Shown here in pieces: positions 11,861 to 63,427 of a stretch of 64,000 nt of DNA (positions are counted from its first letter, which is position 1; each line of letters starts with the position of its first letter). The DNA is taken from the IMG/VR virus record IMGVR_UViG_3300045988_147305; one strand, given 5' to 3'. The notes under the pieces are model-generated. The model ran no database searches. It saw only the letters and a list, made by a program, of their open reading frames with translations, and was not told the DNA's origin. Origin of the DNA: a virus. Its lineage: Duplodnaviria > Heunggongvirae > Uroviricota > Caudoviricetes. The position numbers were made by a program, and so were the translations under genes.

Positions 11861-11912
11861 CCTGTTTGACAGCGGGTAGCAGGTTGTTAAACCTGTTAGT
11901 GAGGCCGTAACT

Positions 11913-12134
11913 ATGGTTAATGCCAATCCTTGCACACGCCCAGAATTCATCTGGCGTTTCTATTCCTGTAAAAAACACCACTATCACTTCGTTATCGCAG
12001 CAACTGAAGACGAAGCACGCTCTCAATTGCCTGATGGCCCCTGCATTTTTACTGCCCGTTTTTCTACTAACTCGCGCAATTCACTTAGTTACTGGAACCT
12101 CCCCTTCTCTGCCGACGTTCAGGGGGGTTTATGA
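11913..12134 (+). CDS. icd: Icd-like cell division inhibitor
   Basis: 73-aa ORF overlapping the start of ant, downstream of the c4 element. Confidence 0.6.
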   Translation: MVNANPCTRPEFIWRFYSCKKHHYHFVIAATEDEARSQLPDGPCIFTARFSTNSRNSLSYWNLPFSADVQGGL

Positions 12135-13174
12135 AAAAACCTCTCGTCACCCGTAATGAAATAGCCGAAGCGATCGCTTTGCATACTGCCTGTATGCCGA
12201 CACGGGAGATCCCCGGCGCAATTGCTAACTATTTCATGATAACCAGGCGTTTTTATACCCGAACAGATAAGGCTGTGATCAACAGGCTACTGATAGCCGA
12301 GATCAGGGATTATTTGATTGAACAAGGACGTCTACGTTACGCAACAGTGGCAGCAGAAATAAGAAAGGAGGCACATAGAATGACCGGTAATAATTTGAAT
12401 GTTGAAAAAACAGCACCTGTTACGTCAGCTACGCCAGCACCAGCCGTGAATATCATCCCCAACACCGGAGACACAATCGACAGCCAAACATTGTTGAAGA
12501 TGGTCAATGAGGCACGCAAGTTATGTGGAGAACCAGAGGTTAGAAACAATAAATTCATCGAAAAAATACTCGATGAACTTGAAGGTGAATTTTACACAAA
12601 AAGTGCAAAATCCCATGGCACAAGGGCTGGGCGCTCTTTTGAGGTCATCACCATGACCTACAAACAAGCCCTGCGAGTCGCCGCGCGCGAGTCAAAAGCG
12701 GTCCGCCGTTCGCTGATCGACAAACTGGAAGAATTGCAGCAGGCAAACTCCCCTGCCCCATCGATCCCCCAAACATTACCAGAAGCTCTACGCCTGGCTG
12801 CCGAGTTGGCAGAACAGAAAATGCAGCTGGAACAACAGCTGGTGGCCGCAGCCCCTAAAGTCGATTTTGCCGACCGGGTATCAGTGGCTAATGGAATCCT
12901 GATCGGGAACTTTGCAAAGGTCGTTGGACTTAAGCAAAACGCCCTTTTCTCATGGTTGCGCCAGAACGGCATTCTCATGGCTTTTGGTGCGCGCAAAAAC
13001 GTACCGCGCCAGCAGTACATTAACGCCGGGTATTTCACGGTGAAAGAAGTGGTGCTGGATGATGAAAATGGCTACCAGATACGGCTGACGCCCCAATTAA
13101 CGGGTAAAGGCCAGCAGTGGTTAACTCGCAAGCTACTTGATGCTGGTTTGTTAAAACCAGTAGCAATAGGTTAA
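12131..13174 (+). CDS. ant: Antirepressor Ant1 (in-frame Ant2 start near 12380), KilAC C-terminal domain
   Basis: 347 aa; C-terminal LPEALRLAAELAEQK...GKGQQWL KilAC/AntB-type domain; internal Met (MTGNNL) with upstream GGAGG. Confidence 0.75.
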   Translation: MKKPLVTRNEIAEAIALHTACMPTREIPGAIANYFMITRRFYTRTDKAVINRLLIAEIRDYLIEQGRLRYATVAAEIRKEAHRMTGNNLNVEKTAPVTSATPAPAVNIIPNTGDTIDSQTLLKMVNEARKLCGEPEVRNNKFIEKILDELEGEFYTKSAKSHGTRAGRSFEVITMTYKQALRVAARESKAVRRSLIDKLEELQQANSPAPSIPQTLPEALRLAAELAEQKMQLEQQLVAAAPKVDFADRVSVANGILIGNFAKVVGLKQNALFSWLRQNGILMAFGARKNVPRQQYINAGYFTVKEVVLDDENGYQIRLTPQLTGKGQQWLTRKLLDAGLLKPVAIG

Positions 13175-13187
13175 CAAAAGAAAAAAA

Positions 13188-13212
13188 CCTGCCAGCAAAC
13201 TGGCAGGTTTCT
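13188..13212 (+). terminator. Rho-independent terminator after ant
   Basis: Hairpin CCTGCCAGCAAACTGGCAGG followed by TTTCTG. Confidence 0.55.
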
Positions 13213-13252
13213 GAGCAGATCGTCCAACCCGATCTGGATCGAGCCAGAAAAA

Positions 13253-13269
13253 TTTGCTCTAATAAATTT
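13253..13269 (+). promoter_or_regulatory. C1 operator (Op53-like) upstream of kilA-repL
   Basis: TTTGCTCTAATAAATTT. Confidence 0.7.
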
Positions 13270-13338
13270 CGTTTTCTAAGTGCAAAGAATCACCATTTCG
13301 AGCTGGTGATTGAAGGTTGATGCAAATTTGGAGAAAAA

Positions 13339-14139
13339 ATGCAACAAACATTCAATGCGGATATGAATATATCAAACCTTCATCAAAATGTCGATCCTTC
13401 AACCACTCTGCCCGTTATTTGTGGTGTTGAAATTACGACCGACCGCGCTGGCCGTTACAACCTTAATGCTCTACACAGAGCGAGCGGACTCGGTGCCCAT
13501 AAAGCGCCAGCTCAATGGCTAAGAACGCTGTCAGCTAAACAGCTCATCGAAGAGCTTGAAAAAGAAACTATGCAGAATTGCATAGTTTCGTTCGAAGGCC
13601 GTGGCGGCGGCACTTTTGCCCATGAATTGCTCGCTGTGGAGTACGCAGGCTGGATTTCTCCCGCGTTTCGGCTGAAGGTAAACCAGACATTTATCGACTA
13701 TCGAACCGGAAGATTACAACCTGCTATTCCGCAGAGTCTCCCTGAAGCTCTCCGTTTGGCTGCCGACCTGGCAGAGCAAAAGCAACGGCTGGAGCAAAAA
13801 ATGCTTATGGATGCACCTAAAGTCGAATTCGCTGAACGCGTTGCTACCGCCAGCGGGGTTCTAATCGGCAACTATGCCAAAGTGCTCGGCCTGGGCCAAA
13901 ACTATCTCTTCACCTGGTTGCGTGATAACGGAATTCTGATCGCAACCGGTGAACGCAGGAACGTCCCCAAACAAGAATACATATCCCGTGGGTATTTCAC
14001 CCTTAAAGAAACCGTGATCGATACAAGCAATGGAAGCAGGATTTCTTTCACGACTCGTATAACCGGCAAAGGTCAGCAGTGGCTGATGAAGCGATTGCTT
14101 GATGCTGGTGTGCTGGTACCTGTCGCGGCAACGCGCTAA
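13339..14139 (+). CDS. kilA: KilA (KilA-N plus KilAC domains)
   Basis: 266 aa; N-terminal KilA-N/APSES-like segment (RYNLNALHRASG...KAPAQWLRT) and C-terminal KilAC domain paralogous to Ant. Confidence 0.75.
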   Translation: MQQTFNADMNISNLHQNVDPSTTLPVICGVEITTDRAGRYNLNALHRASGLGAHKAPAQWLRTLSAKQLIEELEKETMQNCIVSFEGRGGGTFAHELLAVEYAGWISPAFRLKVNQTFIDYRTGRLQPAIPQSLPEALRLAADLAEQKQRLEQKMLMDAPKVEFAERVATASGVLIGNYAKVLGLGQNYLFTWLRDNGILIATGERRNVPKQEYISRGYFTLKETVIDTSNGSRISFTTRITGKGQQWLMKRLLDAGVLVPVAATR

Positions 14140-14168
14140 CAGACGTAGTAAGAACCACCAGCATTGTA

Positions 14169-15014
14169 ATGCTGGCTAAAGTCACTTTCCTGAGCTGTAT
14201 AACGATGAGCGATTTTACTTTTTCTGGCTATGAATTGGCCTGCTTTGTAACACACTCCGGTCTATCCCGTAGCGCCGGGCATATCCTGTCGCAATGTGCA
14301 AATCTCGCGGCAACAACCAGTGAATACTTCATTCACAAGCCTCACCGCCTGATCGCGGCAGAAACTGGTTATAGCCAATCAACCGTCGTTCGTGCATTCC
14401 GTGAAGCTGTAAACAAAGGAATCCTGTCTGTAGAGATTGTTATCGGCGATCACCGTGAACGTCGCGCTAACCTGTACCGGTTTACACCATCCTTTTTGGC
14501 CTTCGCACAACAAGCCAAAAATGCGCTGATTGAAAGCAAATTAAAGATCTCTTCAGCGGCAACCAAGGTTAAAGCTGTTCTCGCTAAGACATTGGCTTTA
14601 TTTAATTTTTTATCCACACCCCCATGTCAAAATGATACCCCCTCCCCCTGTCAGGATGACGTGGCAATAAAGAATAAGAAGTCACAAGTTAAAAAAACAA
14701 AAAGATCAGTTTCCGGCGGTGCCGGAACGAGCAGACTCAAAAAATTGACTTCATGGATCGCTGAGACAAAAGCAAAGGCTGACAATCTGCGGTTATCCAA
14801 AAAACGCGCACAAAAACATGAGTTCAAGCAGAAAGTAGAGGCGGCAGCGCGGAAATATGCTTACCTGAAGAACAAGCGTTCTCCTGATATTGGCGGGGTA
14901 TCAAACTTCGATAATTTGCCGCATTGCATGACGGTAAACGAAGCTCTTAATGCGGTTTTAGCCAAAAATAAAGATAACGAAAAATGGGGTATACCGGCAG
15001 GATTCAGAGGGTGA
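14169..15014 (+). CDS. repL: RepL-like lytic replication protein
   Basis: 281 aa with wHTH-like segment; directly downstream of kilA under the same C1 operator. Confidence 0.55.
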   Translation: MLAKVTFLSCITMSDFTFSGYELACFVTHSGLSRSAGHILSQCANLAATTSEYFIHKPHRLIAAETGYSQSTVVRAFREAVNKGILSVEIVIGDHRERRANLYRFTPSFLAFAQQAKNALIESKLKISSAATKVKAVLAKTLALFNFLSTPPCQNDTPSPCQDDVAIKNKKSQVKKTKRSVSGGAGTSRLKKLTSWIAETKAKADNLRLSKKRAQKHEFKQKVEAAARKYAYLKNKRSPDIGGVSNFDNLPHCMTVNEALNAVLAKNKDNEKWGIPAGFRG

Positions 15015-15063
15015 TAGATTGCTCTAATCTGGAGTCACCTGGCGTTTTCAGTTTGAGGTCGGA

Positions 15064-15310
15064 GATGCAATCTGATTTTTTACAGTTAGCGATCGCTTTT
15101 GCAGGATATGTTTGTATTGGCTTCTGTGTATACATGATCAGCCGAAAAATGCTTGTCGATATCGACCGCAAAGAACGAGCAGAGGAGATCTTAGTATGGA
15201 TTTTCTTTGGCGCGGTCTGGCCATTAGGGATCATGTTTGCTGCAACATTTCTTCTGATGTGGATATTCACCCTTCCAGGTGATTTCTATAGAAAAAAAGC
15301 CAGACATTGA
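15064..15310 (+). CDS. Small membrane protein
   Basis: Two predicted hydrophobic helices; start uncertain (ORF-track start 14984). Confidence 0.3.
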
Positions 15311-46583: not shown

Positions 46584-47846
46584 ATGAGCACTTCAGCACA
46601 AAACCAATCAATCGAAAATGTATGTATCCCTGATGTCCTGAATGCCGGTATCCCGGCCATTATCCAGAACATCCGGGCCGCGCAACGCCGCGTTAGTTGT
46701 GATGACCTCACAGCACGTTTTTTTGATAATGCGGTTCAGTCAGCGGAGATGCTTCACGCACAGCTTATTGATGTTTATAACGCAGAAGCTGATAGCCATA
46801 ACTCCCTGGTAGATGCAGCTGAAAATATGCAGTTGGATCTCGGTCTGAAGGGTAAAGAAATTGAAGAGCTTCAGCTGGAAATTGAACATTTGAAACGCCA
46901 GCAACAGGACGCGATCGACGATGCGACGCATGACGCCAACCAGCGTGCTGATAATGCCGAACGTATAAGCATTGAGCTGGAAACAAAACTCAATGAAATG
47001 ACCGCGATGGTTGAACTGCGGAACTCACAGATTTCAACGCTAAAATCTCAATATAAAGAGATCATGAAACTTGATCCTTTTAACCTTGAGAAACGCTATA
47101 ACAAAGCTAAAAGCGAGCGACAGGAACTGCGTAAGCAGGTCGCCGACCTTAACCAACAGCTCAAAAAAACTATTAAAGATGCAAGCGAGGCGCGCGTGGC
47201 ATTTGCTAATAAAAAAGCAGAGGTTACCGCGCTGGTTAATGAGAATGCCAAATTTGCGACGCTCAAGAAGGAAATGTATGGCATTACTGAGCGCCGTTTC
47301 CCTGCAAGCAAACTTCATCCGACGTTAGGGCAAATCTCCTTCTTCCCGCGCCTCCTGGCTTATGGGATCTCATCGCCTAAAGAGTTCAATAACGAGCGTC
47401 CTTATATCGTTTCTAAGCTGGACTTTGCTTATCAGTTCTGCTGCGACATGGGCTATGCCATTGATATCCGAATCAACGAATGGTTGATGCCAAACTTCCA
47501 GCCGTTGGCAATTTTCCGCGAGTTCCAGCCGGAAGGTTGGGTAGAGTTCTTCCATGAATTGATCTGTAAAGAGATGGAAAGCCGTCGCCCGGAATTGGTC
47601 CGTCGAGTTGAGTGGGCGCAAGAGGTTATGTTGGCAGATGCAGAGCTGCCGTTCGAACCGGAATTCATTGATGATCTGGCAACTAAAGGGCTGCATACCC
47701 TGTTTGATGTGGTTACCCGCCGTCATGAGCAGTTGGTTGTCGAATTGGGTTTAGAGGAAACTGCGGCAAGAAGACTTCTCGATGTTTGCTATGCACGTAG
47801 CGATGCATGGGAAAAAGAGAACGGCGGCACTATTTACGTTCGCTGA
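46584..47846 (+). CDS. Coiled-coil protein of unknown function
   Basis: 420 aa; long predicted coiled coil at residues about 60-220. Confidence 0.45.
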   Translation: MSTSAQNQSIENVCIPDVLNAGIPAIIQNIRAAQRRVSCDDLTARFFDNAVQSAEMLHAQLIDVYNAEADSHNSLVDAAENMQLDLGLKGKEIEELQLEIEHLKRQQQDAIDDATHDANQRADNAERISIELETKLNEMTAMVELRNSQISTLKSQYKEIMKLDPFNLEKRYNKAKSERQELRKQVADLNQQLKKTIKDASEARVAFANKKAEVTALVNENAKFATLKKEMYGITERRFPASKLHPTLGQISFFPRLLAYGISSPKEFNNERPYIVSKLDFAYQFCCDMGYAIDIRINEWLMPNFQPLAIFREFQPEGWVEFFHELICKEMESRRPELVRRVEWAQEVMLADAELPFEPEFIDDLATKGLHTLFDVVTRRHEQLVVELGLEETAARRLLDVCYARSDAWEKENGGTIYVR

Positions 47847-47918
47847 TAGTTACAGTGTCACTTTTAATGCTGGTGGAGTGCTCCCACCAGCATTTTTTTC
47901 GTCCAATGAGGAGGGCAT

Positions 47919-48425
47919 TTGAGTATTTTCAATAAACACGCACACCAGGAACGTCCGTACATCGTCATAGTAGATATTGATGGGACGATATCAGAGGCAA
48001 CGGAAGACAGGCTGCATTTACTTCCACCACCTGGCAAAGGTGCATTAACAGAGCACTGGAACGAGTTTAACCTTGCCTGTGACACTGATGCTCCCATCAC
48101 TCCAGTTATTGATATGGTGCGCCAGTTGTCCGGCATTTACACCCTCTGGTTTGTAACCGGGCGCTGTGAGATAGCCAGGGATAAAACACGAGCCTGGTTG
48201 CGTAAGCACGTAACAAATGGGGCGGAGCCTTTGCTATCTATGCGTCCTGCCACCGATGACAGAAATGACGGTCCAGCAAAGATTGATCTCCTGAAGAAAA
48301 TTGGTCTAAGTAAAATTGCGTTCGCGCTGGAAGATAAGATTGAAGTGGCGCGTGTTTTCAGGAGTCACGGCGTACTTACGTTAATGGTCAGGGAGTATGA
48401 AAACGCGCTTCTCCATCAACAATAA
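47919..48425 (+). CDS. HAD-superfamily phosphatase-like protein
   Basis: N-terminal DIDGT motif; 168 aa. Confidence 0.5.
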   Translation: MSIFNKHAHQERPYIVIVDIDGTISEATEDRLHLLPPPGKGALTEHWNEFNLACDTDAPITPVIDMVRQLSGIYTLWFVTGRCEIARDKTRAWLRKHVTNGAEPLLSMRPATDDRNDGPAKIDLLKKIGLSKIAFALEDKIEVARVFRSHGVLTLMVREYENALLHQQ

Positions 48426-48441
48426 TTGCTCTAATAAATCT
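48425..48441 (+). promoter_or_regulatory. C1 operator
   Basis: ATTGCTCTAATAAATCT. Confidence 0.65.
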
Positions 48442-48619
48442 TGATTTTTAAAACAGAGAAAGTGAAAATAAAAACATGCCGTAAGGCGCGGCATGTATCC
48501 AATCAATCACAGGAGCTGAAAATATGAACACGGCATTCAAAATCATTATGGCCGCGATCTATTTCTGGCTGTTCTCTATCACTTTTGGCGGCATCGTCGC
48601 ACATGGGTAAGGGGGATGC

Positions 48620-49327
48620 ATGAAAGGCGAAGTGAAAGAGCGCGGCATGATTTTCAACGATGAGATGGTCCGGGCCATCCTCGAAGGAAGGAAAACGCAG
48701 ACGCGGCGGATAATGAAAAATCAGCCTGCGGAAGTTGGTCCAGAAGCACCAGTGATGGTTAGAAAAATTGGTGCAGGTTTTCAGTGGTACGGGGCTGATG
48801 GTGTAAGCAGTGTTTTCAATTGCCCATTTGGTATCGTCGGCGATCGAATTTGGGTTCGTGAAACATGGGCGATATTAGGCAATGAGGATGGTTGCAGTGT
48901 GGACTGGAACGACAACCTTTGTCGTGGCGATGAGAAGAACGCAGCAAGGATTTATCGGGCCAGTTGCGAGCAAAAACCTGGTGATTACGGCTTATGGTCG
49001 ATACCCGATGATGCCGACTGGAAACCTCACACTGTGAATGAAAAGTTTGATGGTGGGTGGCGTCCATCAATTCACATGCCGCGATGGGCATCACGCATTC
49101 TGTTGGAAATTACCAACGTGCGCGTTGAACGGTTGAACGATATCAGCGAATGCGATGCAAGGGCTGAGGGCGTTCCGCCTGCTGGAAGTTTGCTTCCTGA
49201 TCACCCGGGAACATTCCTTACTCCCAAGGGGGATTTCGCAATGGCCAAGGTTGCGTTCCAGCGCCTGTGGGAATCCATCTATGGTGAAGAAAGCTGGAAC
49301 GCTAATCCCTGGGTGTGGGTACCGTGA
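48620..49327 (+). CDS. ASCH/PUA-like domain phage protein
   Basis: N-terminal MIFNDEMVRAILEGRKTQTRR ... GDRIWVRETW ... EITNVRVERL, a pattern common in prophage ASCH-like proteins. Confidence 0.45.
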   Translation: MKGEVKERGMIFNDEMVRAILEGRKTQTRRIMKNQPAEVGPEAPVMVRKIGAGFQWYGADGVSSVFNCPFGIVGDRIWVRETWAILGNEDGCSVDWNDNLCRGDEKNAARIYRASCEQKPGDYGLWSIPDDADWKPHTVNEKFDGGWRPSIHMPRWASRILLEITNVRVERLNDISECDARAEGVPPAGSLLPDHPGTFLTPKGDFAMAKVAFQRLWESIYGEESWNANPWVWVP

Positions 49328-49497
49328 TCACCAAAGATGGCCCGAAGGTAAAAAAACTGCACCAAACAGAGCGGATGTGGGTCGTTGGCAAAAACGAGTT
49401 TTACCACAAAGAAACTGGACGCCGCCATTTTGCAGAAAATACGCGCCGCCGACTGCTGTTAGACACCATCAAGCCTATCGAGGTGAAGCATGTTTAA
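49315..49497 (+). CDS. Small hypothetical protein
   Basis: 60-aa ORF; weak. Confidence 0.3.
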   Translation: MGTVITKDGPKVKKLHQTERMWVVGKNEFYHKETGRRHFAENTRRRLLLDTIKPIEVKHV

Positions 49498-49729
49498 ACA
49501 GAACGAAAAAGCTATCGCTCAAATTGCTGATTATATCCCGCGTGCGTGCCGGGGTATGCAGTTGCAGGAAGCCAAAGCGCGCCTGGAGAAAAAAATTGCG
49601 CTCTATATTGATGACGGCTGTGATTCCGCCGTTCTTAACGCGGCGTTCGCACCAGCTCTTAACTGTCACACTCGGGAGTCTTTTTTTTCGTGCATCGCAG
49701 CGCAACTCCGCCAAGGAGGCAACCAGTGA
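49490..49729 (+). CDS. Small hypothetical protein
   Basis: 79 aa; ends in the shared junction GGAGGCAACCAGTGAG. Confidence 0.35.
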   Translation: MFKQNEKAIAQIADYIPRACRGMQLQEAKARLEKKIALYIDDGCDSAVLNAAFAPALNCHTRESFFSCIAAQLRQGGNQ

Positions 49730-49744
49730 GTAACCGTTTTTACA

Positions 49745-50370
49745 TGATGTGCTTGCGTGAAACTGTGGGTAATAACGCCTCATTCCATTGCCATAACGGC
49801 AATGGTTACAGTTCTGATATCGATCGCGCTCATGTTTACACGCTGGAAGAAGCCCAAAAAGCCTGGAATTGTGGGCGAGATATCGATCAGCCTGTTTGTG
49901 CCGATAGTGTGGATGCAATGGCTGTGTGGCACGTTGATTGCCAGTACATCCCTACAGAAAGCCTGATTGAGTCAGATTGCACTGCGTATGTGGCCTACAA
50001 AAAAGGTAGCTGGAACGGCAACGATGTTTACTGGCTTCAACACGGTGGATTGCCAACAGATGACTTCAGTAAAGCGACCATCTTTAGCGTCGCCAACAAA
50101 AACGAACCAGGAATAGTTTGGTTGCCATTTTCCATTGCTGATGCAGCAAAGCGCCGGACGTTCAATATCAATAAATTTAACCGCAGAACAATGGTTCAGG
50201 GCGCAGGTTTGGTCATGCCTGACTGGTTGAAAAAGCAGAACAGAAGAAAGAAGTCGCGAAGCGGGAAGGTGCGTTGGAATTGTCCGCATTGCGGAAAAAT
50301 CACCTGGCAGTACAGCCCATATGATTTTGAAGGCTGTCGTGATTACAACTGTGAAGGATGGCGAGAATGA
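49745..50370 (+). CDS. Hypothetical protein with C-terminal zinc ribbon
   Basis: WNCPHCGK ... CRDYNCEGW motif. Confidence 0.4.
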
Positions 50371-51089
50371 CAATTGACTATCAGGTACTGCGTGAGGCGG
50401 CAGAAAAGGCAACACCAGACGAATGGGTCGCATTTATTTCGCCGGGTACTGGTACATATGCGGTGCATACACCCGGTGATAAACGATGTGGAGACGTTAT
50501 CAAATGGCCCGGCTTTGATGGACAGGAAAACGCAGAGAATAACGCTCGTTATGTTGCCGCGTTCAACCCAAAGGTTGCACTGGAGCTGCTTGGTGAAATT
50601 AAGCGCCTGGAGGACACAAATATTGATGCTATGTGTCGAATTGCAGAGCTTGAGACTAATCTCGCGGCGCTGGTGGCGGAGAATGCGGGGCTTAAGGCCT
50701 TCAAAACCGCCGTTTATCAGCAGATGGGCGTCGGATGTGATGCTCCTGAATTCTCCATTACGGTAGGTTTGAGTAACTTACGTCGTTTTGCTGACACACT
50801 CCACGCCATTGAGCGTGAGTTCTTTACCAAAGAGCTACCTGATGAAGAGCACGAAGGCGAAACATTCAATGAATGTCCACTTAGCTGGGGAATGAGCGTC
50901 GAACAGTACGTTTCCGAGTTTCGCAAATGCCTGGCTGAAGTGCGGGCGCAGGGATTGGAGATGTTTGCACAGAAATGTAACTCAAAATCCGAACAGTCAT
51001 TTGCATCTGATATACGCGATAACTGGAAACTACTCGGTGAACATGCCACTGACTTTGCCGCAGAGCTTCGAAAAGGAGGCAACCAGTGA
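50358..51089 (+). CDS. Ead/Ea22-like protein, paralog 1
   Basis: N-terminal IDYQVLREAAEKATPDEW and coiled-coil middle typical of lambdoid Ea22-like proteins. Confidence 0.5.
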   Translation: MARMTIDYQVLREAAEKATPDEWVAFISPGTGTYAVHTPGDKRCGDVIKWPGFDGQENAENNARYVAAFNPKVALELLGEIKRLEDTNIDAMCRIAELETNLAALVAENAGLKAFKTAVYQQMGVGCDAPEFSITVGLSNLRRFADTLHAIEREFFTKELPDEEHEGETFNECPLSWGMSVEQYVSEFRKCLAEVRAQGLEMFAQKCNSKSEQSFASDIRDNWKLLGEHATDFAAELRKGGNQ

Positions 51090-51838
51090 GCAAGATTGAC
51101 TATCAGGCACTGCGTGAGGCGGCAGAGCGTGCAATTCCGGCAATGGAACGCCTGTTAATGTTGCCAGTTGATGATGATCTGATAAGTGAACAGGAACTTA
51201 AAGATTACGGCGTGGATATTGATGCGCTCAACGCCTTCAAATTTCTGACCGGACCAGAAACCGTGCTGGCGCTGCTGGATGAACGGGAAAGAAACCAGCA
51301 ATACATAAAACGCCGCGATCAGGAGAACGAGGATATTGCGCTAACGGTAGGGAAGCTGAGAGTTGAGCTTGAGGAAGTAAAACAACACGCTGAAGAATTA
51401 TCCGAAACCAAGGCTGTTCGTAACCAATGGCGGCCAGATATTTGCCCAATAACCGGACGTGCATTTTTCATGTGGATTGAGCATCCAACATTGGGAAATG
51501 TGCCGACATATGGTGGCCCATTAGATAGTTACACCATTCCAACAAAGGACGGTGACGGTGAGTTTTCATGTGAGCGTTACGATCATGATTTTGGCGGTTG
51601 GGTAGAAAGCGAATGTCTTGGGGTATATCTGATTGATGATAGAGAACAATGCAGGGTCTACGAACTGGAGGAACGCGTTAAGGAACTGGATGCTCGGGAA
51701 ATATCGCTCCCGGAACGTAGCAGCATGCTTCATCGAACAGATTTTCACGATGATTACCAAACGGTAATGGCATACAAAGTTTCTGAAGTCATCGCTGCAA
51801 TCCGCGCCGCAGGCATTCGCATCAAAGGAGGTGAGTAA
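51086..51838 (+). CDS. Ead/Ea22-like protein, paralog 2
   Basis: N-terminal KIDYQALREAAERA, paralogous to the upstream gene. Confidence 0.5.
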   Translation: MSKIDYQALREAAERAIPAMERLLMLPVDDDLISEQELKDYGVDIDALNAFKFLTGPETVLALLDERERNQQYIKRRDQENEDIALTVGKLRVELEEVKQHAEELSETKAVRNQWRPDICPITGRAFFMWIEHPTLGNVPTYGGPLDSYTIPTKDGDGEFSCERYDHDFGGWVESECLGVYLIDDREQCRVYELEERVKELDAREISLPERSSMLHRTDFHDDYQTVMAYKVSEVIAAIRAAGIRIKGGE

Positions 51839-52184
51839 TGCGTGTGGCATGTATCGGCTTGTTACCGTACCCGACTCGTTTTTGGGCTTCTGCGCTAATT
51901 GCGAAGCCGTATGTCCTGATGGCTGACAACATCATCCCGGCACCAAAGCGCCGCCATACCGGTATTGCAGCGGCACGACGAGCAGCAAAGAGACGCAGGA
52001 GAGCAAAGCGATGAAAAACCGTAAGGCAAAACGACTTTTTTTTACAGCGACCTGTGCGTGTGGTGGAGCTGGTTATTAGCAACCATAAGATAGCGGTACT
52101 CCATCCATTTGGTCAGGTGGCTTTTGCCGCAAAGCGTAAGCCTACTGCGTCACAGAACAGGCGGAAGAAAGGGTACGCTGTAAG

Positions 52185-52373
52185 ATGAAAAACCGTAAAG
52201 CAAAGATTCTGTTAGTTCGTAGAAACGCTCCTGGCGTCTGGCAGTGGGTGAGACTCAGCAACCGACGGATGGGGTTGATGAAATATTACGGGATGATGGA
52301 TTGTGGTTTTTGCAAAAAGCCCAGCGCGGCGCAAAACCGCTGGAAAAACCACTTGCGCACTAAAGGAGAGTGA
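52185..52373 (+). CDS. Small basic protein
   Basis: 62-aa ORF; a truncated duplicate of its first codons lies at 52012. Confidence 0.3.
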   Translation: MKNRKAKILLVRRNAPGVWQWVRLSNRRMGLMKYYGMMDCGFCKKPSAAQNRWKNHLRTKGE

Positions 52374-52377
52374 TATG

Positions 52378-52890
52378 GCGTTAACACACCGCGAACTCTG
52401 TCAGATTGCGTACAAGTTCCTTAAGCGCAACGGGTTCAAGGTTTGTTTTCATGACCGCTTTATAGCTGTAACCAGTACCGGAGAACAGCCAGATGCTATG
52501 GGATTCAGAAATTCAGCATCATGCCTGATAGAGGCGAAGTGTTCTCGTGCTGACTTGTTGGCAGATAGAAAAAAGCGTTTTCGTAAAAATCCGTCTCTTG
52601 GAATGGGCGACTGGCGATTCTTTATTAGTGAGCCGGGAATTATTTCAATTGAGGATTTACCACCTGGCTGGGGATTACTTCACGTTGTTAACGGAAGAGT
52701 ACGGAAAGTACATGGGTGGCCCAAGGGTAATTGCTGTTGGGGTAATCCTGACGATAAGCCATTTACTGGAAATAAGCAGGTTGAATGCGATTACATGTTA
52801 TCTGCATTAAGGCGCATGGAGTTGAGAGGGCACCTTAATGAAATATATGACGGTGTAATTGTTAATAAGAAAGAAGGAAACGCGGCATGA
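52378..52890 (+). CDS. PD-(D/E)xK nuclease-like protein (MmcB-like)
   Basis: QPDAMGF ... LIEAKCSRADL motif arrangement. Confidence 0.45.
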   Translation, partial: ALTHRELCQIAYKFLKRNGFKVCFHDRFIAVTSTGEQPDAMGFRNSASCLIEAKCSRADLLADRKKRFRKNPSLGMGDWRFFISEPGIISIEDLPPGWGLLHVVNGRVRKVHGWPKGNCCWGNPDDKPFTGNKQVECDYMLSALRRMELRGHLNEIYDGVIVNKKEGNAA

Positions 52891-53351
52891 CCACTATTAC
52901 CAATAAGAAACAGTATCCCAGCGAGCAATATCTTAATGAGCTGATCACCAACATAGAGTTTGCCGCAAGGGCACCAGTTGAAGTCGTGAGAGCAATGGCA
53001 GCAGAGCTACAGAAGCGGCGCGAAGCTGATAGTGCAGAACCAGTTGCTTATATTTTCAAACATCCGGCCGGGAAATTATTCTGGGCTTTAACGGATGAAA
53101 GCAATAAAGAGCAAGCGGACGTTATTCCTGTTTATGCTGCCGCGCCTGCGTCGGTTGTGCCGGATAATGCATCAGAGCCTCTTGCTTATGCTTACAAAGA
53201 GCTTACGCCTGAGATTATGCGCAACCATTTAGCTGTATTCGAGCGATATGGAATAGCCCCAAACGATAGCACTACCACAATTCAGGCACTGCGAATCGCG
53301 CTGGATGGTATAGAGCGGAGCGACGCCATGCTTCAGGGTAAAGGAGGGTGA
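52887..53351 (+). CDS. Hypothetical protein
   Basis: 154 aa; shares the N-terminus MTTIT with the gene at 53559. Confidence 0.4.
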   Translation: MTTITNKKQYPSEQYLNELITNIEFAARAPVEVVRAMAAELQKRREADSAEPVAYIFKHPAGKLFWALTDESNKEQADVIPVYAAAPASVVPDNASEPLAYAYKELTPEIMRNHLAVFERYGIAPNDSTTTIQALRIALDGIERSDAMLQGKGG

Positions 53352-53352
53352 T

Positions 53353-53562
53353 ATGGCTATTGCCGCAAGTTACACAATGCATCTCTATTGTGATTGCCTC
53401 CAGTGTACAGATGGCAAATATAAGTCGCCAGACTTCGGTGAGTATATCGGTACGTCATGGTCTGGTTGTGCAAAAGAGGCCCGTAAAGACGGGTGGCGAA
53501 TAAGCGCCGACAAAACACGTGCTTTTGCGCCCGGGCATAAAGTTTTGAGGATTAACAAATGA
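53353..53562 (+). CDS. Small Cys-rich protein
   Basis: 69 aa with CDCLQC...C. Confidence 0.35.
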   Translation: MAIAASYTMHLYCDCLQCTDGKYKSPDFGEYIGTSWSGCAKEARKDGWRISADKTRAFAPGHKVLRINK

Positions 53563-54167
53563 CCACTATTACCAGAGAACAAACTCTGAAAATTATTGAG
53601 GCAGCCGATGAGGTTATTAGTGCGCTTGCCGGAACTAACGAGGATGTTCACCCTGGTAGCGATAACATGCTACGCCTGTGGGATGACCTGAATGACCGTT
53701 ACGCGCCCCCGGAAGTAGTGCGTGAGCTGGCACGAATTGTGCTGGCATCGCTGGAAGCCGAACCTGTAAGCCAAACTTACAACTTGCCAGAATTAATCGA
53801 GGGCATGGAAGTTTCCATTGATGTAAGCACTTGTGATGCTGATTTAGGTAATCGCTATTTCGGCACCGTCACCGAGGCGTCAGAACTTGATACTGCCAAG
53901 AATGGTTACATCCTCCTGGTTCAGGACGCAGAGCCAAACTTCGATGTAAATGGCAACTCTCCGGTAACTCCGGATAGTTGGATAAGCTGTAGTGAGCGAA
54001 TGCCCGCTCAAGATGATTGGATTTTAATTTATTCAAAGCACGGCGAGTATATGGCAGGCCAGGTGCAAGGGGAATACGTGGAGTTGAGCGACGGCACTTT
54101 ATCGTGGTTAGGGAACGCCTTGTTCTGGATGCCGCTACCAGAACCGCCGCAGGAGGTGAATCAATGA
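53559..54167 (+). CDS. DUF551-like domain protein
   Basis: C-terminal WISCSERMP...DWILIY...WMPLPEPP pattern. Confidence 0.45.
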   Translation: MTTITREQTLKIIEAADEVISALAGTNEDVHPGSDNMLRLWDDLNDRYAPPEVVRELARIVLASLEAEPVSQTYNLPELIEGMEVSIDVSTCDADLGNRYFGTVTEASELDTAKNGYILLVQDAEPNFDVNGNSPVTPDSWISCSERMPAQDDWILIYSKHGEYMAGQVQGEYVELSDGTLSWLGNALFWMPLPEPPQEVNQ

Positions 54168-54249
54168 GCTGGCCTGAAGCATTCACCACGGTAGGAATTG
54201 TGATGGCGGCAGCACTGGGTTTGTATTCAATTTGTCGCTGGTGGTAACG

Positions 54250-54483
54250 ATGGGAAAAATAACTTTTGTAGTCGAATTTGAGGATGGCAAAGAGCCACCT
54301 GTTAGCGCCAATCTTGATGTTGCTGGTGGCAGGCTTGTTTCGGTTCTATTTGGTGACTACCGAGATGACTTCTTCCAACCAGAAGAAGTTGATGTAGTGC
54401 GAGAGGCATTAAACGAGTTAAGTGTTGATAACGATGATGCTCATGCGGAAATCATCCAAAAAATGGAACTGCTAACTCACTAA
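54250..54483 (+). CDS. Small strongly acidic protein
   Basis: About 77 aa with roughly 19 Asp/Glu and 6 basic residues. Confidence 0.4.
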   Translation: MGKITFVVEFEDGKEPPVSANLDVAGGRLVSVLFGDYRDDFFQPEEVDVVREALNELSVDNDDAHAEIIQKMELLTH

Positions 54484-54531
54484 ATTATCAATTATGGTGC
54501 TATCACCTACGACACCGAGAGAAAATTTATA

Positions 54532-54654
54532 ATGTCAAAAGTAAATGTTTTGATTTTTTCAGCAATTGTTGGCTTTGGTTTTACTGCCGGAGTGCAGATT
54601 TATATTACGTGGGAAAAAATCATCAACTACGCATGGAGTTGTTTTATTAAGTGA
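54532..54654 (+). CDS. 40-aa hydrophobic peptide
   Basis: Hand-translated MSKVNVLIFSAIVGFGFTAGVQIYITWEKIINYAWSCFIK; below the ORF-track cutoff. Confidence 0.3.
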   Translation: MSKVNVLIFSAIVGFGFTAGVQIYITWEKIINYAWSCFIK

Positions 54655-54661
54655 GGTAAGT

Positions 54662-54955
54662 ATGTGGAGAGGTAATAGTCATGGCAAAAGCCAGATGATA
54701 CTTACCGAATATCAGTTTGACCATAAAACCAATAAATCACGTTCAGTATATTTGCTTCGGCACAATAGCCGCGTAATGAATACCGTGCTGGAGCAAAATC
54801 TGACTGTTGAAATAGATAGTTACGGGGGCTTCAAGCCAACAATTTCGCTTGATGATTTTCCTCGTGGTTTAAGCGAAAGAGAAGCAATGCTGAAATTAGC
54901 AGAATGGCTACAAAGATTAAGCATTGCTATTGAAGATAACTGGTCTGAACCTTAA
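54662..54955 (+). CDS. Small hypothetical protein
   Basis: About 98 aa from the internal Met of ORF 54566-54955. Confidence 0.35.
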   Translation: MWRGNSHGKSQMILTEYQFDHKTNKSRSVYLLRHNSRVMNTVLEQNLTVEIDSYGGFKPTISLDDFPRGLSEREAMLKLAEWLQRLSIAIEDNWSEP

Positions 54956-54961
54956 ATTTAT

Positions 54962-55336
54962 ATGATGACACTAAAACATTTTCTTGACCGCCCATTATGG
55001 GCGGCAGCCGCAGGCTATGACTTTAATTATATGGATTGCATGTCTTATACCGCCAATGCATACGACTATTCCTTCAGTCTGCTGCTTAATTCTTTAAGAA
55101 TATTGCCGCAAACAGAAGTTGGAGAGCTTCATTTATGGCTATTGGGCTTTATCGCGGCTGGAGTTGGTATTGCTGTATGGCCTTTTATTTTCTGGCTGGT
55201 GGCTGTTGTAGTGTGGTTTAAGTGCAAGACGTACCGGAGAAAGTATTTCTTAGGTGATGGAATGACTGATATTGCCAAAATGAACATTGAAAAATGGACT
55301 AAGGAATGTGAAAAGAAATGGCGCAAAAAGAAATGA
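54962..55336 (+). CDS. Small membrane protein
   Basis: 124 aa with a hydrophobic segment GFIAAGVGIAVWPFIFWLVAVVVWF. Confidence 0.4.
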   Translation: MMTLKHFLDRPLWAAAAGYDFNYMDCMSYTANAYDYSFSLLLNSLRILPQTEVGELHLWLLGFIAAGVGIAVWPFIFWLVAVVVWFKCKTYRRKYFLGDGMTDIAKMNIEKWTKECEKKWRKKK

Positions 55337-56226
55337 CCAGAATCACTGAAGAGCGTATATCAGAGATTATTTCCCGTATCGAAATGTATGGTCACGGTGC
55401 TGGATATACGGCAGATGAAGTATTGGCACTTGCCCAAATGGCTTTGGCGGCTTGCAAAGATGATAAAAAAATGAAGTTTATCGACTTGTTAGTGAAGGAA
55501 CTGCCTAAGTGCGGCGGGTGGCCTGATGGAATGAGTTATTGTTACCTACCCAGTGTCAATTTAATGGCACCATGCGCGACTTTTGCTTTTGGCTCAGACC
55601 ACAAAAAAGACACTTTCTTTGGGCGCAATTTTTGTTGTGAGATTGAGCTTCCAATTGGTGACCTTGATAGCGATGAATACCAGTCAGTTGTCACTCGCGA
55701 ACAATACGAATCAGCTCTCATAGCGTCGCAGAAAGTCGAGTTCAATGGTGATGAACTTGAAAGTAAGACTTACAGGTTGGATTTTGGGCAATGGCTGGAA
55801 CAGCAACGCGGGAAAATCGATGTGGACTGTGGTTGTGTGTCCACTGAAACATTCATGCACTGGCTGCGGGTAGCTTACGAGGCTGGCAACTATCCGGATA
55901 TTCCGGATAGTTCGGTGCCAGCACCAGGAAAGGGCGTCACCGGTGAACGTATCCGAATTAAGCCGCATGTTTATCGCGAACTGGTTAACCGTCTCCACGA
56001 TACAGCGATCAAGTGTGCTGGCACCCAGCAATTACGAGAAAGAATTAGCCGTGTTTTGGGCGACGTTATTACACCAGATCATCATAAACAAGCCGAGAAA
56101 AGCGGTCTGGAAAGGAGTCATCTTGAAGCGGCATTAAACATTAAACCGGGGCATACGCTAGGTGTCATTGATGCCATGTTGGTTCATGAAATGGCTAAGG
56201 CGTTATTGCCACTGGAGGCTGATTAA
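55333..56226 (+). CDS. Hypothetical protein
   Basis: About 300 aa; start uncertain (ORF-track start 55318). Confidence 0.4.
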   Translation: MTRITEERISEIISRIEMYGHGAGYTADEVLALAQMALAACKDDKKMKFIDLLVKELPKCGGWPDGMSYCYLPSVNLMAPCATFAFGSDHKKDTFFGRNFCCEIELPIGDLDSDEYQSVVTREQYESALIASQKVEFNGDELESKTYRLDFGQWLEQQRGKIDVDCGCVSTETFMHWLRVAYEAGNYPDIPDSSVPAPGKGVTGERIRIKPHVYRELVNRLHDTAIKCAGTQQLRERISRVLGDVITPDHHKQAEKSGLERSHLEAALNIKPGHTLGVIDAMLVHEMAKALLPLEAD

Positions 56227-56289
56227 ATTCCGGATAAAGCTGATATCTGATCACCATGCTAAAATCCCCTCAATTCACAGAGGGGATTT

Positions 56290-56562
56290 TTGTATATGTT
56301 GCGTAGATTTTTAGGTAAAAGCGTTATTGTCGGTGCGATGTTGGCTATGTCTGGGTGTGCTATGGTGCAATACAATGACGGAGAAAAGGTTAGCATCCAG
56401 TCAGATGGTTGGTATGGCCTGGATAGCCTGCAAAAAACAGCGGATAAAGCCTGCCAGCAATACGGAAAGTCTAAAGCCGTATATCAGCATAGCGCGAACG
56501 CTAACCCTCATCTTGCGCCCGGTTCGGGTGTTCAGAATACCATCTGGAAATGTGAGCCTTAA
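56290..56562 (+). CDS. Small lipoprotein
   Basis: Signal peptide with lipobox LAMSGC. Confidence 0.45.
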
Positions 56563-56564
56563 AC

Positions 56565-56813
56565 ATGAGCGACTGGAATATTGCAGCCAAAAGTCAGGAA
56601 GAACGGGATAAGGTTAACGTAGATCTGGCTGCCAGCGGTGTGGCGTACAAAGAGCGATTGAACATACCAGTCATAGCGGAACAGGTGGCCAGGGAACAAC
56701 CTGAGCACTTGCGTGCATGTTTCATGGAAAGACTACGTTATTACCGCGAGCAGAGCGTGAAACTACCAAAAGGAAGTGATCCGGTATATCAAAAGGCAGA
56801 TCCACAAAAATAA
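56565..56813 (+). CDS. hot: Hot, homologue of DNA polymerase III theta subunit
   Basis: [36 protein letters not shown] closely matches E. coli HolE as recalled. Confidence 0.8.
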
Positions 56814-56890
56814 GCCTTTTCAATAAGCTATATCACCACCAGCTAAAAAATACATTCTGACTTGCATGAAATGCGCCCTTTAGCGATATA

Positions 56891-56906
56891 CTGTATATAA
56901 ACACAG
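56891..56906 (+). promoter_or_regulatory. LexA (SOS) box
   Basis: CTGTATATAAACACAG, a perfect CTGT-N8-ACAG, 18 nt upstream of humD. Confidence 0.8.
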
Positions 56907-56924
56907 TATTTAGGAGGGCGTATA

Positions 56925-57317
56925 ATGGGATTCCCATCACCAGCAGCCGATTTTGCTGAAAGCAGAATTTCGCTTGACGCACAATTCATCAAACGACCAA
57001 CCGCAACATATTTCATGCGGGCCGCCTGCTCACATCTCCGTGAGGGGATTTTGCAAGGTGCAATGCTGGTGGTTGATTCATCTCTTCCACCACTGGATGG
57101 TTCTCTACTCATATGTGCCGTAGAGGGAGAATTTCGCGTAAAGCGATACCGCAAGCATCCTCGCCCACACCTTGAGGATCTGGAAAGCGGAAGACGTGAG
57201 TCACTGCCAGATGATGATGACAGCAGCTATTCCGGGAGTCAGGCCATATTCGGGGTAATCACATACATCATTAACGATGCCAGGAGTGGGGAATTTGATG
57301 ATTGCCCGGTGATTTAA
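56925..57317 (+). CDS. humD: UmuD'-like protein HumD
   Basis: 130 aa, S24 peptidase/UmuD-like C-terminal domain lacking the N-terminal cleavage segment; LexA box upstream. Confidence 0.8.
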   Translation: MGFPSPAADFAESRISLDAQFIKRPTATYFMRAACSHLREGILQGAMLVVDSSLPPLDGSLLICAVEGEFRVKRYRKHPRPHLEDLESGRRESLPDDDDSSYSGSQAIFGVITYIINDARSGEFDDCPVI

Positions 57318-57389
57318 GCTGCAAAGAGCTGGTGCTTTATGCTTGTGAAGTTTATACTTGTGTACACATAACGAGTACACGAGGTGTTT

Positions 57390-57611
57390 ATGCAATCCAT
57401 TAACTTCCGTACCGCGCGTGGCAACCTTTCTGAAGTGCTCAACAATGTTGAAGCCGGGGAAGAGGTTGAAATCACCCGCAGAGGCCGTGAGCCAGCAGTA
57501 ATTGTCAGCAAGGCTACTTTCGAAGCCTACAAAAAAGCGGCGCTGGATGCTGAATTTGCATCCCTGTTTGACACCCTGGACTCCACCAACAAGGAACTGG
57601 TTAACCGATAA
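57390..57611 (+). CDS. phd: Phd antitoxin
   Basis: [39 protein letters not shown] recalled as P1 Phd; ORF-track start at GTG 57384. Confidence 0.9.
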
Positions 57612-62575: not shown

Positions 62576-63427
62576 CTATTGCGCGCTTTCGGGGTTGTCG
62601 TTTACCGGCTGCCCCTTCTTAGTTTTACGGCTGCGCGTAACTGATGCGGCTGATTTGACCTTTTTCTCTTCGCGAGTGATGGCAATTTGTTTTTTTACAT
62701 TTTCAATATCTGCCAGGCGATATATTTTTGCCTGCGGCCAGCGGTCGCAGATGATCGGTTCTATAGAGTCATAAAGGCTAAATTTTGCTTTCTCGAATTC
62801 ACCGTTGATGATGATTCCATCACGGAGAGTTTCATCGCAGATAAACACACCACACAGCGGCACATGGTAACTAACTGATTTACCATCATTGTAGTTAGGG
62901 CTACTGGAAATGTAGTGGACGCGCAGCATTGTTTCGCTAAAGCCGTGTACACGCATACGGAATTTTTCATCCTCCGGGTACTGCTTCATTAGCTCTTTTG
63001 TTGCTTCCAGGTTCTCTATGTATTTCGCACTGTGCTCATTGATCCCCGCGCTTTTCTGGATGCGAATGTCCTTATCAATCAGATGAATAATGCGGCCAGC
63101 GGTCATGTTGACGCTGTTCACAGCTTCTGTCTGATAAGTTGTAACCTTACGCACACCGCGAAGGATGTTAGGCACTGGATATAAAATAGTCTTTGGGATA
63201 TTGAGGTCTGGGTACTGTTCCAGTTCCCGCGCCATTAAAGTCCATTTATCAATTTCAGCCTGAATGCTGTCCGTTTCTTTGAACGGCAGAACGACAACCG
63301 GGCGAACAGGACGACCGTCGCTGGCGGCATCAACGTGTTGGGCGCGTGCAACAGCTTTTTTTAGAAAGAGATCCCTGAAGCTGACGAACTCCTGGTACAG
63401 TTGTTCGCCGTAGACATAATTTATCAT
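62576..63427 (-). CDS. c1: C1 repressor of lysogeny
   Basis: 283 aa, N-terminus MINYVYGEQLYQEF; operator-like sites upstream; cognate operators across the window. Confidence 0.8.
   Translation of the reverse strand: MINYVYGEQLYQEFVSFRDLFLKKAVARAQHVDAASDGRPVRPVVVLPFKETDSIQAEIDKWTLMARELEQYPDLNIPKTILYPVPNILRGVRKVTTYQTEAVNSVNMTAGRIIHLIDKDIRIQKSAGINEHSAKYIENLEATKELMKQYPEDEKFRMRVHGFSETMLRVHYISSSPNYNDGKSVSYHVPLCGVFICDETLRDGIIINGEFEKAKFSLYDSIEPIICDRWPQAKIYRLADIENVKKQIAITREEKKVKSAASVTRSRKTKKGQPVNDNPESAQ

Follow-up and report, generated by a model that had tools for sequence, protein, structure and literature searches.

Introduction

The exo-xis region of phage lambda and of the Shiga toxin (Stx)-converting phages, which belongs to the early-left operon behind pL, is a mosaic of small genes, among them ea22, orf60a/61/63/73 and DUF551-type Ea22 variants, that are repressor-controlled, earliest-expressed and dispensable. 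Three reports (PMC10789677, PMC10834534, PMC7093339) describe the exo-xis genes as being among the first transcribed, as dispensable in the laboratory and as shifting both the lysis-lysogeny balance and host gene expression, with Ea22 being a pro-lysogenic tetramer whose C-terminal domain is exchangeable. Pro-lysogenic or pro-lytic effects are on record for lambda Ea22 and for the exo-xis genes of phage Phi24B. In the P1 family of phage-plasmids, a variable region downstream of the phosphatase gene pap has been published under two names, as RD-5, "between pap and lxr" (Venturini 2019, PMC6906374), and as variable region 8/H, "pmgT...humD" (PMC9603915). In this work we analyze this region in the virus record IMGVR_UViG_3300045988_147305, a stretch of 64,000 nucleotides that we refer to as the window (position 1 being its first letter). 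The window is a P1-like phage-plasmid in which the order pmgS, pap, array, hot, humD, phd, doc, pdcA, pdcB, lpa is as in P1, the array being a series of small genes (g1 to g16) between the end of pap at 48425 and the start of hot at 56565.

Two described members of the family provide a direct comparison. The "hea" operon of P7, behind Op(hea), likewise lies right after pap with identical operator, leader and orientation, and it shares homologues of g4 (Upf87.6, 98%), g6 (Upf88.3, Ead-like, 82%), g8 (Upf89.0, 100%) and the C-terminal module of g15. The pmgT-upfO region of P1, behind OpmgT/Op88, is equal to the array in position, operator, leader and orientation. Unlike the published P1-family versions of the slot, the window carries g16 and a variant hot, and is without pmgV, upfMNO and lxr. 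The likeness to exo-xis extends to the Ead/Ea22 N-terminal domain and DUF551, both present in the array, but the array would be held in a plasmid-prophage by P1 C1 and not by CI and N antitermination; the C-terminal parts of its Ea22-like proteins show no relation to the lambda Ea22 C-terminal domain of known structure, no homologues of orf60a/61/63/73 were identified in it, and g1 and g12-g14 match almost only P1-size plasmids and not lambdoid phages. Phage accessory regions, in which conserved flanks enclose hypervariable small early genes (Silas et al., bioRxiv 10.1101/2023.04.06.535777), share with this locus the conserved flanks, sharp breakpoints, many alternative cargos and non-essential small genes.

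From the comparisons below, we consider it highly probable that this interval, between pap and the addiction module phd-doc, is the accessory slot of the P1 family, filled with early, exchangeable and dispensable cargo that is silenced by C1 and derives in part from lambdoid prophages.

Cargo exchange across P1-like elements

To describe the slot at the level of the family, Pap was used as an anchor in 80 IMG/VR loci, 2 genome loci and annotated records, which gave 90 anchored P1-like loci. The 55 loci with both pap and phd were used for comparison; the flank fetched was 10 kb, so that intervals of up to 10 kb are covered, and a gene was scored as present at no less than 80% identity and 70% coverage. 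These elements are not collinear over the interval: the genes of the window occur in 31 presence patterns among the 55 loci, with each gene found in 1 to 25 of them (2-45%), and the pap-to-phd length ranges from 2.9 to 9.9 kb with a median of 7.5 kb (8.96 kb in the window and 3.77 kb in P1). A query coverage of at least 80% is reached by only 3 of the 1,407 PLSDB plasmids with a match and, among the E. coli records with a match, by only 2 of 3,893.

The limits of the exchange are sharp. Homology with a relative that carries hsd genes (L013) ends at 48614 and resumes at 57314, and the exchangeable block is therefore taken as 48615-57313, which contains hot and humD and leaves the operator, promoters and leader outside. 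In place of the block, L013 has three large genes on the minus strand (9051-15068) for HsdR, HsdS and HsdM of a type I restriction-modification (R-M) system, matched at E=0, 3e-141 and 1e-118. None of the window's array genes is found in 20 of the 55 loci (about 36%), and in these the g1-to-humD block is replaced by an opposite-strand type I R-M system (hsdR, hsdS, hsdM). The relatives carrying hsd genes keep the homologous leader, in which the hairpin at 48474-48496 lies, downstream of hsdR, with hsdR ending about 80 bp beyond it. In such loci the C1-controlled promoter faces antisense into hsdR; that antisense C1-controlled transcription down-regulates hsdR restriction during lytic growth is speculation on our part.

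These limits modify the extent given by a sequence-only reading of the window, which had drawn an island of lambdoid-type accessory genes over 48425-56562. The array does lie there, while the variable block begins after the operator and leader and runs on through hot and humD. That reading had also placed more genes here than in P1, and this is borne out by a pap-to-hot interval of 8.14 kb as compared to 2.27 kb in reference P1, but the implied unusualness is not, since arrays of 6-10 kb are normal in P1-like elements and it is laboratory P1 that is the deletion outlier. The locus represents a new allele of a hotspot that has already been published, with a length in the range usual for natural P1-like elements.

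Reference P1 as a deletion derivative

The alignment of P1 to the window covers 47919-49314 at 97.6% identity and then continues directly at 55875-56221 with 90.8%, with one base only of overlap at the 49314/55875 junction. P1 (locus L003, NC_005856, 6489-7558) is thus without 6,560 bp of the window (49315-55874). Frame calculation from the alignment coordinates places the junction 13 nt before the stop codon of g1, and makes P1 pmgT (309 aa) a composite of g1 residues 1-231 and about 78 residues that stem from out-of-frame reading of what is left of g15, with P1 pmgU being an in-frame C-terminal remnant of g15. Other elements retain homology from about 55754, which lies before the P1 junction, so that it is most parsimonious to assume a loss in the P1 lineage. 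L085 has another deletion, which is larger and independent of that in P1. On these alignments laboratory P1 is a deletion outlier at this slot, and the P1 annotations of pmgT and pmgU are probably deletion artefacts.

The dispensability of what P1 retains has been addressed experimentally, with pap, pmgT, pmgU, pmgV, upfN and upfO found non-essential by CRISPR interference (CRISPRi) and deletion, and hot by CRISPRi (PMC10695390). A morphogenetic role for the array, as the P1 names pmgT, pmgU and pmgV imply, has only the historical P1 and RCS47 annotation in its favor and is hardly credible, indeed effectively refuted, as laboratory P1 makes infective particles without window 49315-55874, pmgT, pmgU and pmgV are themselves non-essential (so that the labels are not upheld), the entire array is missing from 20 of the 55 loci, and the lambdoid homologues sit in early regulatory operons and not in late ones.

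Proposed regulation by C1 and the conserved leader

A C1 operator ahead of the array, one of the claims of the sequence-only reading, is present as ATTGCTCTAATAAATCT, which differs at one position from the 17-bp asymmetric C1 consensus (ATTGCTCTAATAAATTT) and is identical to the sequence annotated in P1 as OpmgT/Op88. The window contains 11 such sites, compared to 0.25 expected by chance. The operator overlaps the -35 boxes of the predicted promoters P2pmgT and P1pmgT, and over the 200 bp from operator to g1 a single base, located in a hairpin loop, differs from the OpmgT/PpmgT region of P1. The leader hairpin at 48474-48496 lies here inside the 5' untranslated region of the array transcript. 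A search of the interval and its surroundings for a P1 late (Lpa) promoter resembling LPhot was negative, and the sequence of P1 LPhot itself does not occur ahead of hot in the window.

The leader also contains a small open reading frame (sORF, 48524-48610) that had escaped annotation. Its full length of 28 aa is preserved in 77 of 79 P1-like loci with a ratio of nonsynonymous to synonymous polymorphism (pN/pS) of 0.19, and it is kept even where hsd genes replace the array. It matches no PHROG family, and its product may be either a leader peptide or a small peptide of the membrane.

With this in mind, we propose that the conserved leader (Op88, two weak sigma-70 promoters and the sORF) drives a rightward, translationally coupled array of about 18 genes. 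C1 would silence the array in the plasmid prophage, and upon infection or induction it would be transcribed as an early operon, probably up to the strong terminator-like hairpin after g15; a scan of the array gave no plus-strand terminator-like site before 56261. The products would be non-structural, namely a nuclease-fold protein, two Ea22-type coiled-coil proteins, DUF551 and other modular proteins, small basic proteins with Cys motifs, acidic proteins, small membrane proteins and a putative lipoprotein. Their targets early in infection would be the host or competing elements, and by analogy to exo-xis their likely roles would be the tuning of the lysis-lysogeny decision and of host physiology, possibly together with the counteracting of defence systems.

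Several points weigh against this proposal. P2pmgT and P1pmgT are weak matches taken from the P1 annotation that a generic promoter scan misses, and both C1 binding and transcription of this particular array are predicted. Separate expression, perhaps in the lysogen, is possible for the AT-rich right-hand genes g13a-g14 and for g16, which lies past the terminator. The sequence searches assign no biochemical function to any array gene, and the closest public record, by sequence identity, is a 217-kb multireplicon Klebsiella plasmid, whose P1-like part may or may not still work as a phage.

Coding content of the array

Between pap and hot there are 18 co-oriented plus-strand open reading frames (ORFs), g1 to g16 including g7a, g7b and g13a, in addition to the unannotated 28-codon ORF of the leader (Table 1). 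Coding coverage of 48620-56562 is 95%, and neighbouring ORFs either overlap by 1-13 nt or are separated by 1-170 nt. All 18 match PHROG families, with E-values from 1e-24 to 1e-124 and each family labelled as of unknown function, while the seven longest antisense ORFs, taken as a control for minus-strand genes, match no PHROG family. Selection was assessed on ORFs with diverged, ungapped, full-length alleles in related loci; for 14 array ORFs within g3-g16 the pN/pS lies at 0.06-0.60, and hardly any of the alleles, of which there are up to 24 for a given gene, contains a stop. Individual values include 0.24 for g4 over 24 alleles, 0.06 for g12 over 12 alleles and 0.11 for g16. With pN/pS below 1 in every testable gene, these ORFs are, on sequence evidence, real genes under selection.

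Table 1. Features of the slot and its surroundings in window coordinates.
Feature	Coordinates	Strand	Properties and matches
pap (phosphatase)	47919..48425	+	conserved left flank; 93-99% aa identity to pap of P1, P7, RCS47, plasmids
C1 operator ATTGCTCTAATAAATCT	48425..48441	+	equivalent of P1 OpmgT (former Op88), P7 Op(hea)
predicted sigma-70 promoters P2pmgT (TTGCTC-17-TAAAAC), P1pmgT (TTGATT-17-GAAAAT)	48426..48469	+	transferred from P1 annotation, sequence identical
8-bp hairpin with T-run on minus strand	48474..48496	-	reads as minus-strand intrinsic terminator; conserved in P1
unannotated sORF, 28 aa, hydrophobic MNTAFKIIMAAIYFWLFSITFGGIVAHG	48524..48610	+	AGGAG ribosome-binding site; first ORF behind C1-controlled promoter
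exchangeable block (g1 through humD)	48615..57313	.	L013 breakpoints
g1, 235 aa	48620..49327	+	orthologue of the real N-terminal 231 aa of P1 PmgT; tentative ASCH/PUA-like fold
g2, 60 aa, basic	49315..49497	+	phrog_1226, 2.3e-36; 93% identity in Stx phage Lyz12581Vzw
g3, 79 aa	49490..49729	+	phrog_1344, 2.6e-52; 3' end shares junction repeat D1 with g5
g4, 214 aa, C-terminal CPHC...CRDYNC zinc-ribbon-like motif	49726..50370	+	phrog_2457, 1e-118; P7 Upf87.6 homologue (98%)
g5, Ead/Ea22-like protein a, 243 aa	50358..51089	+	PF13935, 8.1e-20, residues 5-113
g6, Ead/Ea22-like protein b, 250 aa	51086..51838	+	PF13935, 3e-29; 98% identity to Stx2c phage LC645426
g7a, 58 aa, very basic (pI 12)	51838..52014	+	phrog_13831, 1.1e-41
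153-bp filler between g7a and g7b	52031..52183	.	21-bp direct repeats GATGAAAAACCGTAARGCAAA on either side (52010-52030, 52184-52204)
g7b, 62 aa, basic, CGFC motif	52185..52373	+	phrog_1380, 1e-40
g8, 171 aa, PD-(D/E)xK (restriction-endonuclease-like) fold	52375..52890	+	
g9, 154 aa	52887..53351	+	phrog_6847, 4.6e-107; MTTIT N-terminal start common to g11 (repeat D7)
g10, 69 aa, CDCLQC...C motif	53353..53562	+	phrog_926, 7e-36; pN/pS 0.11
g11, 202 aa, acidic (pI 4.05), C-terminal DUF551	53559..54167	+	PF04448, 2.6e-10, residues 140-198
g12, 77 aa, acidic (pI 4.16)	54250..54483	+	phrog_3876, 6e-53; in 24/55 P1-like loci
g13a, 40 aa, single predicted transmembrane helix (hydropathy)	54532..54654	+	phrog_5525, 1.2e-24
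g13, 97 aa	54662..54955	+	phrog_1258, 3.3e-48; AT-rich segment, GC 0.37
g14, 124 aa, membrane protein, hydrophobic at about residues 53-90	54962..55336	+	phrog_2638, 1.2e-62
g15, 297-302 aa, multi-module	55333..56226	+	phrog_21459 (residues 188-301) plus phrog_60, 924, 7798, 3126
terminator-like hairpin, 11-bp stem then TTTTTGTAT	56261..56290	+	between g15 and g16
g16, 88 aa, putative lipoprotein	56296..56562	+	signal peptide and lipobox-like AMSGC; phrog_7757, 1.3e-53; in 12/55 loci
hot (DNA polymerase III theta homologue)	56565..56813	+	PF06440, 2e-33; in 24/55 loci only; inside variable block
humD (UmuD-like)	56925..57317	+	final gene of variable block
c1 repressor gene	62579..63427	-	99.6% aa identity to P1 C1 over 283 aa; trans-acting regulator of operator

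The gene content proposed by the sequence-only reading holds in most respects. Small accessory genes do fill 48620-56562 between the phosphatase gene and hot, and many are short, overlapping and on the plus strand as it described, although their number is 18-19 and not about 16. Its two tandem Ea22-like genes correspond to g5 and g6 by PF13935, its DUF551-like protein to g11 (PF04448, 2.6e-10), and its PD-(D/E)xK nuclease-like protein to g8 by fold and catalytic motif; its zinc-ribbon, acidic and membrane genes are recovered as the Cys motifs of g4, g7b and g10, the low isoelectric points (pI) of g11 and g12 (4.05 and 4.16), and the membrane or lipoprotein-like g13a, g14 and g16. For its ASCH-like protein, g1, support is tentative, and there is no match to ASCH sequence models.

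Both g5 and g6 score above the gathering score of PF13935. Only about 15 N-terminal residues can be aligned between them, their C-terminal parts being different, and neither matches any solved chain in sequence searches of the PDB; their C-terminal parts are therefore not the solved lambda Ea22 C-terminal domain. In g8 the catalytic motif D...(D/E)-x-K is present on an alpha-beta-beta-beta-alpha-beta core, and g8 is a PD-(D/E)xK protein, confirmed as a fold, with nuclease activity only putative. Its best PDB match is 3dnx, at 22% identity and a profile E-value of 0.2 that is not significant; this is SPO1766, a PD-(D/E)xK protein of unknown function which we take to be a member of the MmcB-like family of DNA-repair nucleases. 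The distribution of g8 is restricted to Enterobacterales prophages and P1-like plasmids, and in some Salmonella and E. coli proteins (P0129, P0140, P0211, P0213, P0224) the g8 domain is fused behind an Ead/Ea22 N-terminal domain, or with DUF551. The sequences suggest that Ea22-type N-termini are a common scaffold for interchangeable C-terminal effector domains.

The ASCH-like fold of g1 is tentative. There is no Pfam ASCH match even at E-values up to 10, the A1 profile has no PDB match, the top single-sequence PDB match is ASC-1 at a weak E-value of 0.92, and the AlphaFold2 (AF2) model has a predicted local distance difference test score (pLDDT) of 52.6, which is too low to judge the fold. Across the 18 array proteins, Pfam returned only Ea22 (twice) and DUF551, with nothing but noise added by E-values up to 10, and NCBIfam returned no match; sequence searches of the PDB with g1, g4, g5, g6, g8 and g15 and with profiles A1 and A2 gave nothing significant. 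None of the 18 proteins matched PADLOC-DB at E-values up to 0.01, a search for which the alternative cargo of L013 served as positive control by matching type I R-M models (E=0, 3.3e-141, 1.3e-118). The names Ocr, ArdA, Ral, Gad, Tad, Acb and Had did not emerge from Pfam, NCBIfam or PDB, anti-defence profiles not having been searched.

Origin of the cargo

Of the 542 records matched in the phage database, most belong to Stx-converting or other lambdoid phages. Outside P1 the best match is Stx2c phage LC645426, with 97.9% nucleotide identity over window 49713-54160. In Stx phage Lyz12581Vzw (NC_049917), homologues of g2, g3, Ea22, g8 and DUF551 stand in order between exo/ssb and int, and in Serratia prophages a g8 homologue lies between replication gene P and antiterminator Q (i.e., in the nin region). 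Parts of the block are found in 3,416 of 5,426 complete E. coli genomes (63%), at 7,355 chromosomal places as compared to 847 on plasmids. The segments g12-g14 and g1 behave differently, in that 291 of 310 and 365 of 404 of their matches, respectively, are to plasmids that are non-mobilizable and about 90-100 kb in size. The array thus appears to consist of a lambdoid core, g2-g11, with g1 to its left and g12-g16 to its right, g1 and g12-g14 being largely specific to the P1 family. The lambdoid character claimed for the whole array by the earlier reading accordingly applies to g2-g11, which reach 98% nucleotide identity with Stx phages, and not to g1 and g12-g14. Gene flow between phage-plasmids and phages, chiefly of genes of unknown function, has been documented in general (PMC10879196).

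A location of the array genes on conjugative plasmids, the context of leading-region anti-defence genes, was considered and is unsupported for g12-g14 and g1, which match almost only non-mobilizable plasmids. In a plasmid search with the whole query, 355 matches are conjugative plasmids. Related arrays encode a DNA methyltransferase, PAPS (3'-phosphoadenosine 5'-phosphosulfate)-reductase-like genes and a dATP/dGTP pyrophosphohydrolase.

Short direct repeats stand exactly at gene and module boundaries of the array. A 37-nt junction repeat (...AAGGAGGCAACCAGTGAG) is found at g3/g4 and g5/g6, the two Ea22 coding regions have their initial 32 nt in common, TAAAGGAGRGTGATATGGC occurs at g7b/g8 and g9/g10, ATGACCACTATTACCA at the starts of g9 and g11, and a 29-nt linker precedes the C-terminal module in both g11 and g15. 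On its right side, the P1 deletion ends 9 nt before one of these repeats. From their sequence and placement the junction repeats appear to be the expected substrates for cassette exchange. The non-coding 153-bp filler at 52031-52183 is absent in the plasmids L008 and L010 and is replaced by 1.3 kb in Stx2c phage LC645426 (L005); judged by its sequence context, it is probably the scar of a lost cassette. We propose that g2-g11 came from lambdoid and Stx prophages through recombination with early accessory regions that are under repressor control there (exo-xis, nin), with exchange taking place at such short conserved junction sequences.

The closest relative and the right flank

The closest public record is the Klebsiella pneumoniae plasmid pCRKP-59-KPC (NZ_KX928752.1), a 217-kb IncF/IncY multireplicon that is 100% identical over 48425-56562 bar four positions. 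Over 47919-57400 the only differences are at 49223, 51879, 52286 and 54991. Two of these are indels in homopolymers, by which g1 and g7a of the public record lose their reading frame, and two are single-base substitutions; the window versions are intact. The homopolymer frameshifts may be the reason that g1 and g7a loci are absent from the gene table of pCRKP-59-KPC.

Directly ahead of g16, within 56256-56297, the terminator-like hairpin has the arms AAAATCCCCTC...GAGGGGATTTT followed by a T-run. The GAGGGG of its 3' arm is the sole Shine-Dalgarno-like sequence for g16, and an extended -10-like motif, TGCTAAAAT, stands immediately before the hairpin. It may be that g16 and hot are expressed differently from the remaining array. 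The hot gene of the window is a variant allele with 84% amino acid identity to P1 Hot, and hot is missing altogether from about half of the P1-like loci. At 56813-56925 the LexA-regulated gene lxr, which in P1 lies between hot and humD, is absent. No Rfam families were found across 47800-57400 at E-values up to 1.

Alternative explanations

The alternative that survives best is that the array, or at least one gene in it, is a counter-defence module against the immunity of the host or of rival elements. Its candidates would be g11 and g12, which as acidic proteins might mimic DNA, together with the nuclease-fold g8 and the ASCH-like g1, and a possible target would be the type I R-M that sibling plasmids have at this very slot. 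We hold this to be possible while leaning against it. By analogy, an anti-defence role is plausible for some array genes because the slot is built like a phage accessory region, because its alternative cargo is a type I R-M system, and because related arrays carry methyltransferase and nucleotide-metabolism genes (the DNA methyltransferase, PAPS-reductase-like and dATP/dGTP pyrophosphohydrolase genes noted above); the strong purifying selection on the small acidic g12 also speaks for it. The hotspots of P2 and P4 likewise hold counter-defence or defence genes. While the accessory regions described by Silas et al. hold such genes, no array gene here has a demonstrated or homology-inferred activity of this kind, and Pfam, NCBIfam and PDB gave no homology to characterised anti-defence proteins (anti-defence profiles, again, not being part of that search). 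The sole experimental data on relatives, for Ea22 and exo-xis, concern the lysis-lysogeny balance and not immunity evasion, and the presence of g1 and g12-g14 on non-mobilizable plasmids of P1 size gives no link to the anti-defence genes of conjugative leading regions. A bolder form of the idea, in which at least one array gene represents a new early counter-defence family and R-M systems and their inhibitors (with g11, g12 and g8 as candidates) are opposed in a single-slot arms race, is tentative and in our estimation doubtful.

It is unlikely that g13a, g13, g14 and g16 form a cassette for lysogenic conversion or superinfection exclusion with promoters of its own in the prophage state, which would make it a defence cassette and not an early lytic one. 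This would fit the predicted transmembrane segments and lipobox-like signal, the distinct AT-rich composition (GC 0.37-0.41 at 54500-55500), the short non-coding gaps before g12 and g13a, the terminator-like hairpin before g16, and the occurrence of a bona fide defence system in the slot in 36% of relatives. However, the scan gave no plus-strand promoter-like sites in these gaps, PADLOC gave no match, and the genes are oriented like the C1-controlled array and lie only 6-82 nt apart.

We regard as very improbable the explanation that the array is selectively neutral recombinational baggage made up of decaying prophage fragments. The mosaic scars (the 153-bp filler with its 21-bp repeats, as well as truncated or fused modules in relatives) and the frameshifts in g1 and g7a of the nearly identical pCRKP-59-KPC record are what such decay would leave, but all 18 ORFs are intact here and tightly coupled, and the range of pN/pS together with the near absence of stop-containing alleles is that of genes kept by selection.

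Implications for the P1 family

The accessory slot of early, C1-silenced cargo thus remains the reading that we prefer. No new mechanism is demonstrated by this analysis and specialists will find nothing surprising in it; its by-products are the exact limits of the slot, the deletion status of P1, the alternation of R-M system and array, and the conserved leader sORF. In Enterobacteriaceae, resistance genes are commonly carried by P1-like phage-plasmids, and the slot is among the main sites of gene turnover in these elements. As reference P1 is deleted here, decades of P1 genetics are silent on the natural cargo. If the array does include inhibitors of the kind considered above, their presence at the slot would let the carrier enter cells that hold the type I R-M systems of sibling plasmids. 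The 18 genes, being intact, under purifying selection and widespread, are reasonable candidates for anti-defence or lysis-lysogeny screens, and the sharp limits at 48615-57313, with two kinds of cargo (type I restriction as opposed to an early accessory array), make the slot a natural test-bed for competition between elements.

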